Below, in pieces: positions 893 to 6,666 of a DNA stretch of 64,000 bases; position 1 is the stretch's first letter, and the number at the start of each line of letters is the position of its first letter. The DNA is from Sphaerodactylus townsendi. Taxonomy: Eukaryota. The translations under genes and the position numbers were made by a program. Where the stretch lies: contig NC_059439.1 of assembly GCF_021028975.2 (NCBI RefSeq), forward strand, positions 25,916,001 through 25,980,000. The letters run 5' to 3'. The notes under the pieces were generated by a model. It searched no databases and was not told where the DNA came from. It was given only the letters and a program-made list of their open reading frames with translations.

Positions 893-3800
893 CTTACTGG
901 GGCTGGGGATGTAAATTGTGGGCATGTCAAACCCACATTTGTTGAGGCCTGGGCGCTTGCAGAGTTCCTGGACAATCTGCATCAGCACCCTCTGTCAGGA
1001 GAGAAGCAGGGAGCAGTGTAAAAAAAAAATCCAACCGGAGGCTTTGGCCTAGTGTCTTCCTTCCCACAGAAACAGGGATTCTGCTTCTCCGTCCTAGCTG
1101 ACTCCCTTCCCCAGGGATGCTTTCCCGGGAGTTACCTGCCTGTCCCCCTCAGCACCCGCCTCATCAGCCTTGCTGAGGTAGAAACGCAGTTTGTCCCCAT
1201 GCCCCTCGTTGAGTTCCTCTACGATGTTGAGGGTGCGCTTGCAAAGGGCCTGTCCCATGGGGTCGAAGAAGACCAGGATGAGATCACAGAGCTGGCCTGA
1301 AGCAAGGTGGGGAAACGGGAAAAAGAGGGAGTGAATGCCGTGGAAGATGCAGCTCGCTAAAAGATGATGCCCCTGTCACATTTTGCCCACCAATTCCTGT
1401 TACTTTACTTGCTTTAGACAATTCTCAGAATTTTTCTCATATACAGCCTTTCCTTTATTGTTACCAACGAAAGACCCTAAAAATCCATGCTTTAGGTACA
1501 CATGTTCCCAGAGCAGAGATGTCAAGCATGTGGTCCAGGGGGCAGATCCAGACCCCTGATAGAGGTTATCAGGCCTGTGGAACAGCTGAGGTAACACTAC
1601 CTCTCATTCCCAATCTCCAGGCATTCACCCCGATGCAGGTTCGGCAATCCAGGCACCCACCGCACTCCCAGTCTGACATGGTGAGACCCCCACCCCCCCA
1701 AGTGCCAATCTGGGCTGGTGAGCCCACTGAGAGGGACCCACCCCCAGCCCAACCAAGTAACATTTATGTTATATCTGGCCTTTGTAACAAATCAGTTTGA
1801 CACCCATACCTCACAGATTCCAAGCTCCTTCCCATTTTAACCGCTATTTTCCCACTAACTTTTAACCTGTTCTGCTTTCCCTGTAAGAAGCCTATCTCCT
1901 TTTGAACTCTGAACCACTAGGCTGATGTCAGGTGGCAATACAGAGAAGAGTTTAGATTTATACCCTCCTTTCTCTCCTGTAAGGAGACTCAAAGGGGCTT
2001 ACAATCTTCTTCCCCCCCCCCCCCCACAACAAACACCCTGTGAGGTGTGTGGGGCTGAGAGAGCTCCGTAAAGCTGTGACTAGCCCAAGGTCATCCAGCT
2101 GGCGTGCATTGGGAGTGCACAGGCTAATCTAGTTCCCCAGATAAGCCTCCACAGCTCAAGTGGCAGAGCAGGGAATCAAACCCAGTTTTCCAGATTAGAG
2201 TGCACCTGCTCTTAACCACTACACCACTGCTGCTACCTTATCCTTATGCTATCACTACCCAGATGATCAGAACCCACTACAGGAGCCAACAAGATTCCAC
2301 ATCATTCCGCTCACCAAACCAGATAAGTGCTGCTTCAACATCAAAAGGGTACTTCATGTCACCATCGACCAAGCCTGGTGTGTCAAGGAAGGTAACCAGA
2401 GGGAAGTGTTTCTGTTTGGAGGTACAAATCTCAGTGCTCAGGTACTCCGGCACCCCTAATGGAAGAGGGGGGAAATGAGTATTCTCACAGCACTGACAGA
2501 TGATAAACAGCCTGCCTGCTAGAAATACACGCTGCCTTCCAGATTTCATTACTCACCCGGCTTAGTGTCTGCCAAGCTTCAGTGCCAACTAACAGCCTTA
2601 AGGTATCATTTCCATCCAATTCATGAATTCATGAGTGTTTGAATGGATTTGTCTGTACCTTATTCTTAAGTGTTTGAATGGGTGTTGTCTGTACCTTATT
2701 CTTACCCCAATTGTTTGTAACTGTTGAACTAACCTTTGAAACTTTGCAGGGCCTGGAAATGGGGATACAGATGGAGCGTTGCATTACCCTGTAGCAAAAG
2801 GTAAGGAAAAAGCAGGGGATTTGAAACATGGTTGCTGCTTCACAACAGCTTTTTTAAAAAAGTTATGCAAACCACAAGGTGGGTCTTTCAACAGCTGTTA
2901 GCCACTATAGCCAAAAATAGAGAAACTGGGTATAAACTGGGCTAGTCACAGCTTCTTGGAGCTCTCTCAGCCCCACCTACCTCACAGGGTGTTTGTTGTG
3001 AGGGGGGGAAGGGCAAGGAGATTGTAAGCCCCTTTGAGTCTCCTGCAGGAGAGAAAGGGGGGATATAAATCCAAACTCTTCTTCTTCTTCTATAAAGAAT
3101 AAGGAATGGCTATGCCCACCCTGGCTTGCTTCTGAGCAGTTCCTGGACACACGATTATAGGTGACAAAGTGCTGGATTTGACAGGCTTTTGTTTTAATGC
3201 AATAAAAAATTCCCTGATTTTTTTAGTCCAGAGAATTCAGAAGAAGAAAAAGTTTGGATTTATACCCTGCTTTTCTCTATCGCAAGGAGTCTCAAAGCAG
3301 CATACAACTCCTTCCCTTCCTCTCTCCGCAACAGACCTCTTGTGAGGCAGATGGGGCCGAGGGAGTGCTGAGAGAACTGTGGCCAGTCCAAAGTCACCCC
3401 ACTGGATTCATATATAGGAGCGGGGAACAAATTCAATTCACCAGATTACAGTCTGCCATTCTTAACCAGTACAACGCGGACGGCCAGATTATCTGTGAGG
3501 GGAGCAAATGAGGCAGGAAATTCTCACTGTGAGGGACTCTCGTTTCCTCCCGCTGGTGATGAAGGTGAAACCTTGGGTCTCGATAGCTACTCCGGTTCGT
3601 TGAATGTGCTCTTCCACATACCTTCAAGGAAATGATGAGGAAAGCAAGATGTAATATACAAATATGACCAGTTCTACAATCTAATGAAGTTATTATTGCT
3701 GGATCTCACCAGTCAAATAGCAACCTAGGAGAACGTCTTCTTGGTCATGGCACCAAAGCTCTGGAACTCTCTCTTTAAGGGAGATTCAACTGCACCCTTT

Positions 3801-4883
3801 TTCCACTGCCTTGGCAGCCCTTGTATGGGTAGAAAGCCAGGACATAAATTTTGGAAATAAATAATCTCAAAACACCCTGAGGCTTACAACCCGTCACCAA
3901 GTACGGAAAGATCGGTGTCAACGCCAACGTTTCTGGTTACTCGGGATGCCTTGAATAATGCACAATTAACGTAGGATGTACATAATGTTCCATTTCCTTT
4001 CATATAGAACACTCATTCCTTCCTACAAACTAAATAATATCAAACAGATAAATTCTATATCTTGTATTACAGCACACCACTGATAAAAGACCACCCTGCA
4101 GATACCAGAGCATCATATGACCTCCCTGAACTTTCTAACATCCAATAGATGTTGAGACTGCGATATCTTGCACCCAAACCAACTCCTTGGGATTTCCCCA
4201 CAATGCTTAGCACCCATATAGGGTCGCCGGCTCTGAGTTGGGAAAGACCTGGAGATTTAGGGGGGGGGGGGCTAAGGAGGGGTGGGTCTTCAGTGGGAGT
4301 ATAACAGTCCACCTTCCAAAGTGGCCATTTTCTCCAGGGGAACTGATCTTTGTTGTCTGGAGATGAGCTGTCATTCCAGGAGACCACCAGGGTCGCTTGG
4401 AGGTTGGCAACACAACAGCCATGCCAACTCAAGATTTTCCCACAATGCCTTGCACCCAAGCCAGCACTCCTTCGTAGCATCCCTTCGAGCGGCCTTTATG
4501 GTTCTCCACCCCATCTTCCGATGGGTCCCTGCTCACCAATTGATGAAGCTACTCTTGCCAGCACTGTGGTTCCCCATCACCATGACAGTGACTTTGCGGC
4601 GTGGAGGCAGCAGCGTCAGGCCAAGTCGTGACCCAATGGTCACCAGACCTAGAAGGAAAGAGTGATGGGTTTAAGACACAAAGTTAGAGACCTGTTGCTA
4701 CCTGTGACATCCCATACCTACTCCAAACATCCCCCCCCCGCATTCCCCAGCCCTCTCACCATGACCCGGATGTACATAAAGCGAGTGGGCCTCTCGCAAG
4801 ACCCGCTCGGTCACCGACTCGGCCCCTCCCCCTGCAGCCGGGTTCGCGGCCTCGCGGGACTTCCCGCTTCTCCCCCCGGGCAT
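893..4883 (-). CDS. Uncharacterised dynamin/EHD-like P-loop GTPase, 5' part (7 coding exons, 262 codons; gene continues off the left edge)
   Basis: Exons 4883-4760, 4648-4537, 3621-3528, 2788-2734, 2455-2315, 1296-1136, 991-893. All introns GT-AG, phases consistent, no stops. Protein MPGGRSGK...VTVMVMGNHSAGKSSFINW (G1)...VAIET (G2-like)...FLDTPGLVDG (G3)...FYLSKADE (G4)...CGFDMPTIYIPSPSK. Confidence 0.9.
1946..2233 (-). mobile_element. tRNA-derived squamate SINE (Squam3-like), representative copy
   Basis: tRNA-like head gcagtgg(c/t)gtag..ggttaagagc..gggtttgattccc and (TTC)n tail. About 20 copies, e.g. 7468-7760, 10820-11082, 11326-11612, 20224-20513, 31628-31950, 35948-36230, 38644-38975, 41915-42220, 42706-42998, 52974-53278, 57390-58053, 59222-59912. 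Confidence 0.85.
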
Positions 4884-5110
4884 GGCTGGTGACCGGCCAC
4901 CGGGCGACGGAAGCGGCAAGGAAACTCGGGAAGAGGAACACAAAGGGATGTACTACAACTCCCAGGGGGCACTTCGCGGAGAAGGGCCGGCGTTCCCATC
5001 GGCCGACAAGGAGGACGAGTAGAACGTCACGGGTCCAGAAGACTACAACTCCCATGAGGCCACGCGCATTCTTGTTTCGAATGAGGGCTTTTCAAGCCTT
5101 AGTTCGAAAT
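4780..5110 (-). promoter_or_regulatory. CpG-rich promoter of the GTPase gene with two ACTACAAnTCCCA (ZNF143/THAP11-type) motifs
   Basis: Local CpG enrichment around the ATG at 4883; actacaactcccag at 4952-4965 and actacaactcccat at 5042-5055. Confidence 0.65.
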
Positions 5111-6329: not shown

Positions 6330-6424
6330 TTATAGGCTGCAAGCTCCCAGTTGCTGGGCACAGACTTCATCTATGCATTCATTTTGAGCTACTGTGAAAT
6401 GCTCCTTCCAGCCTCCCATGATGC
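6330..6424 (-). other. Duplicated SULT terminal exon (candidate alternative last exon or pseudoexon of gene A)
   Basis: Acceptor cttcacctgcag, then in-phase [31 protein letters not shown], paralogous to exon 6779-6667. Confidence 0.8.
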
Positions 6425-6666
6425 CTGCAGGTGAAGAAAATAATACAGCAAGAACACAAAAGCAGGTAATATCCTGCTCTCCTCAGACTGGGATATGAGT
6501 AAATAATTTAAGAACTGTCCCTTGGAAAGAGAATAATAGCAGATCAAGTTTTTATTCCACTTCATTGAAATACATTTTAAAATGATCTGTAAACAGTTTG
6601 AAAGCTCCCGCTTGACATAATTATGCAAAACCAACCATCCGGGACGGTTTAGTGACTAAGGAGTGC

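Follow-up and report, generated by a model that had tools for sequence, protein, structure and literature searches.

Our analyses support the assignment of an uncharacterised gene of Sphaerodactylus townsendi to a family of dynamin-superfamily G-domain proteins which, among solved structures, is nearest to EHD and which is neither an EHD1-4 paralogue nor sarcalumenin. The gene codes for a 453-residue EHD-related protein with two predicted transmembrane helices that, by analogy with related proteins and with an even chance of our being right, acts as a nucleotide-driven tether or remodeller of an internal membrane. The window, i.e. the entire 64,000-nucleotide stretch of contig NC_059439.1 that was analysed, holds the 5' part of the gene, for which the original prediction had proposed an intact, EHD-like GTPase; our results extend this to a predicted integral membrane protein belonging to a family that is ancient, spread across eukaryotes and closely related to bacterial proteins. 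The dynamin superfamily, whose transmembrane members drive ER and mitochondrial fusion, is generally regarded as well catalogued, and an additional conserved transmembrane family over most eukaryotic supergroups would suggest an unnamed membrane-remodelling step. Such a family would also constitute a living intermediate for the rise of soluble EHD scaffolds from membrane-anchored bacterial GTPases. The gene is strongly conserved and a candidate for independent losses, in mammals on one side and in turtles, crocodilians and birds on the other.

The seven exons first proposed for the window (Table 1) splice, as claimed, into 786 nt of 262 stop-free codons through six introns that are GT-AG throughout and agree in phase. 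Five further exons, recovered left of the window, complete the gene and uphold its intactness: 12 exons and 11 GT-AG introns give an open 1362-nt frame, with an in-frame stop upstream of the ATG. This splice model was derived from the genome sequence and orthologue comparison, and its product is identical to annotated Eublepharis and Gekko proteins at 426 of 453 positions (94%), gap-free, which places the gene model far beyond chance. Three sequencing runs aligned at the locus behave as genomic DNA, with no exon-exon joints among those displayed. The CpG-rich promoter was likewise borne out, as positions 4801-5100 have a GC content of 0.64 and a CpG observed/expected ratio of 0.945, against 0.37 over the whole window. 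The gene is the single-copy orthologue of zebrafish si:ch211-11k18.4, a gene spanning 9 kb that appears on a larval-eye differential-expression list (PMC3530609). Transcription of orthologues is seen from contigs of approximately 2 kb, whose 418 encoded residues match the zebrafish protein at 100% identity. The placement downstream of a SULT1 cluster stands as to adjacency, but not as to its one-sidedness, SULT1-type genes flanking the gene on both sides; a functional tie with them was dropped, adjacency being its sole support.

Table 1. Features of the Sphaerodactylus gene (window positions, except for exons 8-12)
Feature	Position	Strand	Basis
CpG island (likely promoter and first exon)	4701..5100	.	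GC, CpG o/e, island call
Exon 1: ATG, predicted disordered N-terminus (~residues 1-22), predicted N-terminal stalk helix 24-37	4760..4883	-	Splice model; predicted structure, low pLDDT before residue 20
Exon 2: G1/P-loop GNHSAGKS, Ser70 at the dynamin cation-binding serine position	4537..4648	-	Splice model; alignment
Exon 3: switch I/G2 (A-I-E-T94)	3528..3621	-	Splice model; T94 aligns within the EHD PEPTTD switch I segment
Exon 4: aligns with the EHD KPF-loop region, without a KPF/NPF motif	2734..2788	-	Splice model; alignments
Exon 5: G3/switch II DTPGLVDG	2315..2455	-	Splice model; alignment
Exon 6: family signature FFDPxGQALCxRT and G4 SKAD	1136..1296	-	Splice model; alignment
Exon 7: EHD alpha6-equivalent helix (Q-x-x-Q replaces the EHD dimer tryptophan), G-domain end	893..991	-	Splice model; register from EHD profile alignment
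Exons 8-12: stalk, predicted TM1 and TM2, return helix, stop	G000:C15 25915958-25915813, 25914488-25914314, 25913729-25913617, 25913498-25913414, 25912774-25912718	-	Left of the window

The three nucleotide-binding motifs named in the original prediction were located at 4574 (G1 GNHSAGKS), 2384 (G3 DTPG) and ~1171 (the G4-like SKAD), and an extended G domain with motifs G1-G4 is present across the family, as judged from Pfam, motif conservation and fold matches. In the family alignment (105 aligned rows), catalytic positions are 91-99% conserved: Ser70 is serine in 97%; in switch I, E93 is found in 94% and T94 in 91%, with serine in a further 8%; in G3, D153, P155 and G156 reach 99% and L157 93%; and in G4, K218 and D220 reach 98% and 99%, the first position being S (77%) or T (20%) and the residue after the motif E (44%), T (30%) or Q (9%). 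The family thus bears the marks of the dynamin superfamily, namely a hydrophobic residue rather than Gln after G3 and a catalytic P-loop position taken by Ser or Arg, at which the dynamin serine binds the cation (PMC5084822). Residues 59-290 share 84-88% identity with fish and amphibian orthologues, and in a second organism the exons show six differences, five of them synonymous.

Single exons gave only sub-threshold Pfam matches, and an Atlas search with one exon gave no match at 0.9, so that full-length orthologues were needed for domain calls. With these, the dynamin/EHD-like nature of the G domain was confirmed: Pfam Dynamin_N scored 33.2 bits against a cut-off of 27 in the gecko orthologue P0004 and lay above the cut-off in four full-length orthologues. 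EHD_N (PF16880), DUF5600 (PF18150) and EH or EF-hand had no Pfam match at E<=1 in five family proteins, the first two being found on EHDs in the comparison scan. An AlphaFold2 model of P0004, 94% identical to the Sphaerodactylus protein (pLDDT 92, pTM 0.84), has helices at 24-37, 270-345 and 414-446. Its best fold match is EHD4, over G domain and stalk together (Z 27.0, rmsd 3.4, 321 aligned residues, model 23-446 on chain 19-403), followed by mitofusins (Z 17-21) and IniA (Z 18). Aligned to EHD4, the model shows a predicted bundle of helices whose tip would contact the membrane and whose C-terminal helix folds back, as in the dynamin superfamily.

The recovered 3' exons, which were to be inspected for transmembrane or EH domains, contribute two predicted transmembrane helices and no EH domain. 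These helices, called from hydropathy alone, would occupy the place of the EHD membrane-binding tip: the central helix 270-345 is predicted to continue into TM1 just beyond the register of that tip, and to be followed by a loop of ~37 residues, TM2 and a C-terminal helix returning onto the stalk, so that both protein ends would lie on the cytosolic side. The return helix is followed by the C-terminus at residue 453. Both hydrophobic segments reach a Kyte-Doolittle value >=1.6 in 89 of the 102 members that span the region, and a single segment does so in 12. Seven K/R residues lie on the C-terminal side of TM2, an N-terminal hydrophobic segment is absent, and no retention or targeting signal naming an organelle was found in the protein.

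Bacterial EHD/sarcalumenin-related GTPases with a C-terminal transmembrane helix pair are described in passing in PMC7016017. The bacterial loci gathered here by pattern, which may differ from that sequence set, numbered 197, of which 80 were kept and 75 proteins extracted. GNHS[SA]GKS occurs in all 80, a set biased towards the family around G1 because the search patterns were derived from it. A hydrophobic peak follows the G domain in 68 of the 75 proteins, and the structure model of one bacterial protein places a helical hairpin there, so the predicted transmembrane-pair architecture is common to both groups. Profile scores were 333 for family against bacteria, 331 for bacteria against EHD and 155 for family against EHD; that is, the score of either family or EHD against the bacterial clade is roughly double their score against each other. 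In the best tree, which has a very long outgroup branch, family and bacteria group together at 87/99, but the AU test does not reject a single eukaryotic clade of family and EHD/sarcalumenin (p-AU 0.225). The bacterial proteins (~430-490 aa) share with the family the P-loop, the switch I pattern and the order of G domain, stalk and hydrophobic hairpin (profile match E 3e-42 over 272 columns), but retain the EHD-type RGYD after G3, YGxLCWNL helix and NKxD, all missing in the family, and their modelled hairpin has a tight turn instead of the ~37-residue loop. No common neighbour gene was found among 31 proteins at 15 bacterial loci; a second dynamin-like gene lies alongside in five of the 80. 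None of 99 pattern matches in viral contigs was a relative. The family would have kept the G-domain and transmembrane-pair design of a bacterial clade thought to be ancestral to EHD and sarcalumenin.

The family is ancient, eukaryote-wide and apparently unstudied, with members in animals, choanoflagellates, a chytrid, amoebozoans, algae, oomycetes and apicomplexans. The suggested patchy vertebrate distribution also seems real, as the best 120 matches include no mammal, bird, turtle or crocodilian, and the gene was likely lost in these groups; catfish and elephant shark carry fast-evolving extra copies with altered motifs. Nine genes that PMC6871517 lists as missing from warm-blooded vertebrates were compared by description, and none is described as dynamin- or EHD-like. 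Consistent with the gene being uncharacterised, literature searches by gene names, motif strings, locus tags and topics returned no study or description of the family except a table mention under the gene name, while the tree in PMC7016017 may include members. Databases carry the family as unnamed automatic annotation, some members being labelled 'EH domain-containing protein 1/3/4' or 'sarcalumenin'. A broader reading, which we put forward tentatively and hold to be possible but rather doubtful, is that of an integral-membrane dynamin-like family as old as LECA, with the transmembrane design of the bacterial EHD ancestor, maybe a separate entry from EHD/sarcalumenin, serving, like atlastin and mitofusin, to tether or fuse organelles, and with two or more amniote losses, one in mammals and another in turtles, crocodilians and birds. 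If so, the amniote losses would have hidden the family from human-centred cell biology.

By comparison with the superfamily, nucleotide binding would dimerise two G domains over the G-interface, Ser70 and the cation would stimulate hydrolysis, and a hinge swing of the G domain relative to the stalk would pull the anchored bilayers. As the nucleotide, GTP is somewhat favoured over ATP, since the family lacks the EH-domain tail that in EHDs occupies the G4 aspartate, a soft argument given that the residue after G4 is variable within the EHDs too (Q in EHD1, M in EHD2); as the closest solved relatives are ATPases, 'GTPase' is a provisional label for the family.

The same architecture could instead serve a scaffold on a single membrane, in which EHD-like rings or filaments stabilise or constrict tubules or necks (endosome, ER, flagellar pocket) and the anchor only fixes the location, an explanation that we regard as unlikely although serious. 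The fold match to EHD4 across the entire G domain and stalk is consistent with it, EHD filaments are built through three interfaces (PMC9741607), and the family has a conserved helix face of its own (Q234 98%, Q237 85%) at the interface-1 site. The EHDs, the closest relatives, are moreover same-membrane scaffolds and ATPases rather than fusogens, which speaks against a tether or fusogen. Nevertheless, the family shows no conservation of the interface-1 tryptophan, of the KPF/NPF loop or of the EH domain, and a permanent anchor abolishes the recruit-and-release cycle that EHDs need. A reading of the protein as no more than a diverged paralogue of EHD or sarcalumenin, which some automatic labels and the status of EHD2 and EHD4 as best solved relatives in the profile search might suggest, is scarcely credible and was largely refuted. 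Four EHD-type loci and one sarcalumenin-type locus (contig C4) sit on other contigs of the genome, the domains defining EHDs are missing, and the family forms one clade (100/100) on a 2.67-long stem apart from both, in a tree with thin EHD sampling (five rows, all animal or plant), mitofusin left out, and nine of 52 rows dropped (six bacterial sequences, an EHD3 that aligned poorly, a gapped paralogue from catfish and a protein whose N-terminus was not homologous). The contention that the gene is not a canonical EHD1-4 hence holds.

The patchy loss would be explained by a cell-autonomous immune or membrane-repair GTPase, comparable to IRG/GBP or to bacterial stress dynamin-like proteins, which have a repair or anti-phage role. 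The apparent losses in several amniote lines and the altered extra copies of catfish and elephant shark fit this reading, which is nonetheless improbable, because the main orthologue is single-copy in Sphaerodactylus and, unlike arms-race genes, strongly conserved in its G domain across jawed vertebrates, has a CpG-island promoter and differs mostly synonymously in the second organism. An association with the cilium or flagellum appears very improbable: most named non-animal holders come from lineages with flagellated life-cycle stages, but the sampled taxa were drawn from protist-rich collections, Cryptosporidium, which is not known to bear flagella, has the family, and ciliated mammals and birds apparently lack it.

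Several known systems come close to the family. EHD1-4 (EHD2 2QPT/4CID, EHD4 5MTV/5MVF/7SOX) share with the family the G-domain fold, the motif order, a composite stalk of N- and C-terminal helices and membrane contact at its tip, with 18-23% identity in structure alignments and a profile match of E 2e-19. In EHDs, however, the tip is polybasic instead of carrying two predicted transmembrane helices, G1 is GQYSTGKT rather than GNHSAGKS, G4 is NKxD rather than [ST]KxD, and EH, EHD_N and DUF5600 domains are present. Neither the tryptophan that EHDs carry at interface-1 in helix alpha6 nor their KPF loop (PMC9741607) has a counterpart, the aligned family helix containing no Trp and the aligned segment no KPF/NPF. 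Sarcalumenin, the best human BLASTX match of the zebrafish gene (E 2e-05; PMC3530609), belongs to the same dynamin-superfamily branch. It differs in its separate locus and its position in the tree. Sarcalumenin is also a soluble, luminal protein with an N-terminal signal sequence, in contrast to the family protein, whose two hydrophobic segments are C-terminal. Mitofusin/Fzo1, BDLP, IniA and atlastin resemble the family in their transmembrane segments at the stalk tip, as described for atlastin, mitofusin and BDLP (PMC5084822), and mitofusin, BDLP and IniA match its fold across N- and C-terminal helices (Z 15-21). The family stalk is much shorter, identity with mitofusin, BDLP and IniA is 12-16% in structure alignments, and mitofusin gave no match in the profile search at E<=0.5. 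Atlastin and GBP are marked by a P-loop arginine finger and RD in G4 (PMC5084822), in place of which the family has S70 and [ST]KxD. The family may work like mitofusin, BDLP, IniA or atlastin, yet it is probably a member of none of these groups.

The gene is real and intact. Spliced on the minus strand, its seven exons in the window gave the open frame that had been read from the DNA, stop-free over 786 nt (262 codons), with GT-AG introns and matching phases; the G motifs lay at the predicted positions, and a CpG island spans the gene start, in agreement with the proposed CpG-rich promoter. The search for 3' exons that had been suggested succeeded, orthologue alignment recovering five from DNA left of the window and yielding a complete frame of 12 exons and 1362 nt that encodes 453 residues with a single terminal stop. 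The product is 94% identical to the Eublepharis and Gekko proteins, 84-89% to those of other squamates and 65-71% to those of amphibians and fishes; over residues 59-290, identity is 84-98% among the orthologues compared. A second organism shows six differences within the exons, five of which are synonymous. Orthologues are transcribed, 1.9-2.1 kb contigs encoding 418 residues that match the zebrafish protein exactly, and several protist records of the family derive from transcriptome assemblies; among sequencing runs, none of RNA is listed for S. townsendi. Very high-copy repeats, with a read depth of 1e4 to 1e7 times, occur in introns 2, 3 and 5 and beside exon 7 (window 1930-2350, 2915-3480, 4180-4465 and 800-940).

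The original prediction had also separated the gene from canonical EHD1-4 and called it uncharacterised, and both claims were borne out. S. townsendi carries one copy (11 of 12 matches in a genome search were its own locus, the other an EHD exon at 30%), and an EHD-exon search of the same genome found, all on other contigs, four loci of EHD type, at 100, 97, 80 and 73% identity, and one of sarcalumenin type at 44%; the gene is therefore none of these. Pfam matches were Dynamin_N and MMR_HSR1 only, and EHD2 and EHD4 were the only clear sequence matches among solved structures (E 4e-13 with a single sequence, 6e-17 with a profile). The gene is already in databases without a name, its matches being called 'uncharacterized protein', 'si:ch211-11k18.4' or 'Dynamin N-terminal domain-containing protein', a few with automatic EHD or sarcalumenin labels. 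The open-access literature searched gave one table mention of the gene and no description of the family, although the clade may have been recognised earlier; PMC11789081 itself states that sarcalumenin-like GTPases were omitted from its trees. The phylogeny against EHD and sarcalumenin, a 43-row tree, recovered the family as monophyletic (100/100), with a long stem branch. Overall, the gene represents an apparently ancient family of its own within the EHD branch, with predicted transmembrane helices. Fishes also harbour diverged extra copies (P0122 and P0125 from catfish, P0142 from elephant shark, and P0001, si:dkey-98f17.5) whose G1, switch I or G4 motifs are altered; these may be pseudo-enzymes or have acquired new functions.

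Among 1.84 billion cluster representatives, 211 scored at E<=1e-30. Thirty of 150 listed representatives were looked up, and the 18 with a named organism comprised three fishes, four insects or springtails and ticks (Nilaparvata, Graphocephala, Orchesella, Amblyomma), and Monosiga, Hartaetosiga, Pigoraptor, Blyttiomyces, Clastostelium, Gefionella, Hemimastix, Tetraselmis, Hemiselmis, Aphanomyces and Cryptosporidium, a breadth that points to an origin close to the eukaryotic root. In the Atlas, 27 of 30 matches were clusters with the same Pfam pair. The vertebrate distribution does look patchy, as had been proposed. With the full-length protein as query, 1178 matches were ranked; the best 120 comprise 16 lepidosaurs, tuatara included, followed at once by amphibians, lungfish, ray-finned fishes and sharks, and none of them is named as a turtle, crocodilian, bird or mammal. 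Of the 866 matches to the exon query, the top 120 agree, apart from one entry, P0067, that bears both an Oreochromis and a Mustela label; it scores as fish proteins do, and a mislabel is more probable than a mammalian copy. An EHD1 exon in the same tool returned many mammals and a turtle. Among 160 unnamed or unassigned proteins, nine scored best with lepidosaurs, only one of them by a clear margin: a fragment of 124 aa that matches a skink at 100% identity. The gene was likely lost in mammals and in the turtle, crocodilian and bird lineages; this is likely and no more, because it was judged from the best 120 matches, a list from which an orthologue under about 64% identity would drop, with 7994 candidates scored, and because GC-rich genes are often missing from bird assemblies. 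In 2012 the zebrafish gene had sarcalumenin as its best human BLASTX match, at E 2e-05 (PMC3530609).

The gene had been placed downstream of a SULT1 cluster; such a cluster does lie upstream, and a further one lies on the far side. The minus-strand order is SULT1-type cluster, gene and SGF29 exon, the next recognised gene downstream; a convergent plus-strand SULT1-type cluster follows, so that two SULT1 clusters flank the gene and SGF29. In the nearest of the SULT1-type copies, the last exon (window 6330-6425, minus) reads GGWK in place of the usual GDWK and seems to terminate early; judging from its sequence, this copy is possibly altered or decaying. A plus-strand C2H2 zinc-finger array exon (L009:4101-5498) lies to the left of the window, about 75 kb away. 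About 52-55 kb to the right, an open frame of 777 codons on the minus strand (L115:2245-4575), rich in Glu and internally repetitive, had no Pfam match; in size and composition it may resemble the large acidic exon of APOBR, a gene likewise of the human 16p11.2 region. This human region includes SGF29 and Sult1a1 (PMC11568765).

Features flanking the gene and segments of the AlphaFold2 model of P0004, a gecko orthologue
Feature	Position	Strand	Remark
SGF29 tudor-domain exon	L004:857-1147 = G000:C15 about 25886857-25887147	minus	
CpG island	about 21.7 kb left of window		noted with SGF29
Second cluster, at least 3 SULT1-type genes	about 62 to 36 kb left of window	plus	convergent with SGF29
N-terminal helix	residues 24-37		
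G domain	about residues 58-262		
Single unbroken helix	residues 270-345		
Two short helices	between the 270-345 and 381-405 helices		
Helix	residues 381-405		
Return helix	residues 414-446		

The model of this 94%-identical orthologue was built from a 110-row alignment (pLDDT 92, pTM 0.84). As the predicted kinship would have it, EHD4 was the top fold match (Foldseek, VIA-align; Z 27.0, rmsd 3.4 over 321 residues), followed by EHD2, mitofusins, Fzo1, IniA and bacterial dynamin-like proteins. Conservation reaches 91-99% at S70, K73 and S74 (G1), E93/T94 (switch I), D153/G156/L157 (G3) and K218/D220 (G4). Hydropathy peaks at about 321-350 and 381-409 are both retained in 89 of the 102 family members covering the region, and a two-pass topology with both ends cytosolic is predicted. 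When two profile alignments are chained, the membrane-binding tip of EHDs, which inserts into the outer leaflet (PMC9741607), would fall at about residue 316, just ahead of the first hydrophobic segment.

By analogy with the systems treated in PMC5084822, two G domains would dimerise across the G-interface, the P-loop serine and a cation would assist hydrolysis, and membrane work would occur at the stalk tip, where the transmembrane segments of atlastin, mitofusin and BDLP are located. On this analogy tethering or fusion of an internal membrane, general remodelling included, is ranked first and given about an even chance. An EHD-like scaffold acting on one and the same membrane comes second and is less likely. 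An immune or repair role, ranked after the scaffold, appears improbable, and a ciliary role, ranked last, slightly more so. The zebrafish transcript declines between 3 and 5 days together with collagen and ER folding genes (PMC3530609), a weak hint of secretory cells.

According to PMC7016017, a transmembrane helix pair follows the GTPase domain in the bacterial proteins most closely homologous to EHD and sarcalumenin. A prokaryotic genome scan yielded 197 relatives, of which the best 80 (Verrucomicrobiota, Planctomycetota, Pseudomonadota and others) were retained; all 80 have GNHS[SA]GKS, the second half of which was preset by the scan pattern, but not G-N-H. Their model, with a tight helical hairpin, also matched EHD4 best. 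Profile scores were 333 for family-bacteria, 331 for bacteria-EHD and 155 for family-EHD, the EHD profile being shallow. The family joined the bacteria at 87/99 in the 43-row tree, and a single eukaryotic origin with EHD was not rejected (p-AU 0.225); one acquisition followed by duplication, or two acquisitions, may account for the family. At five of the 80 loci (L053, L063, L070, L071 and L100; Verrucomicrobiota/Opitutia), a second dynamin-like gene of 715-740 aa lies directly upstream, a pairing already known from bacterial dynamin-like proteins. Beyond G1 the bacterial relatives show EHD-type features, whereas the family has its own conserved residues in place of the interface-1 tryptophan and KPF/NPF loop of EHDs.
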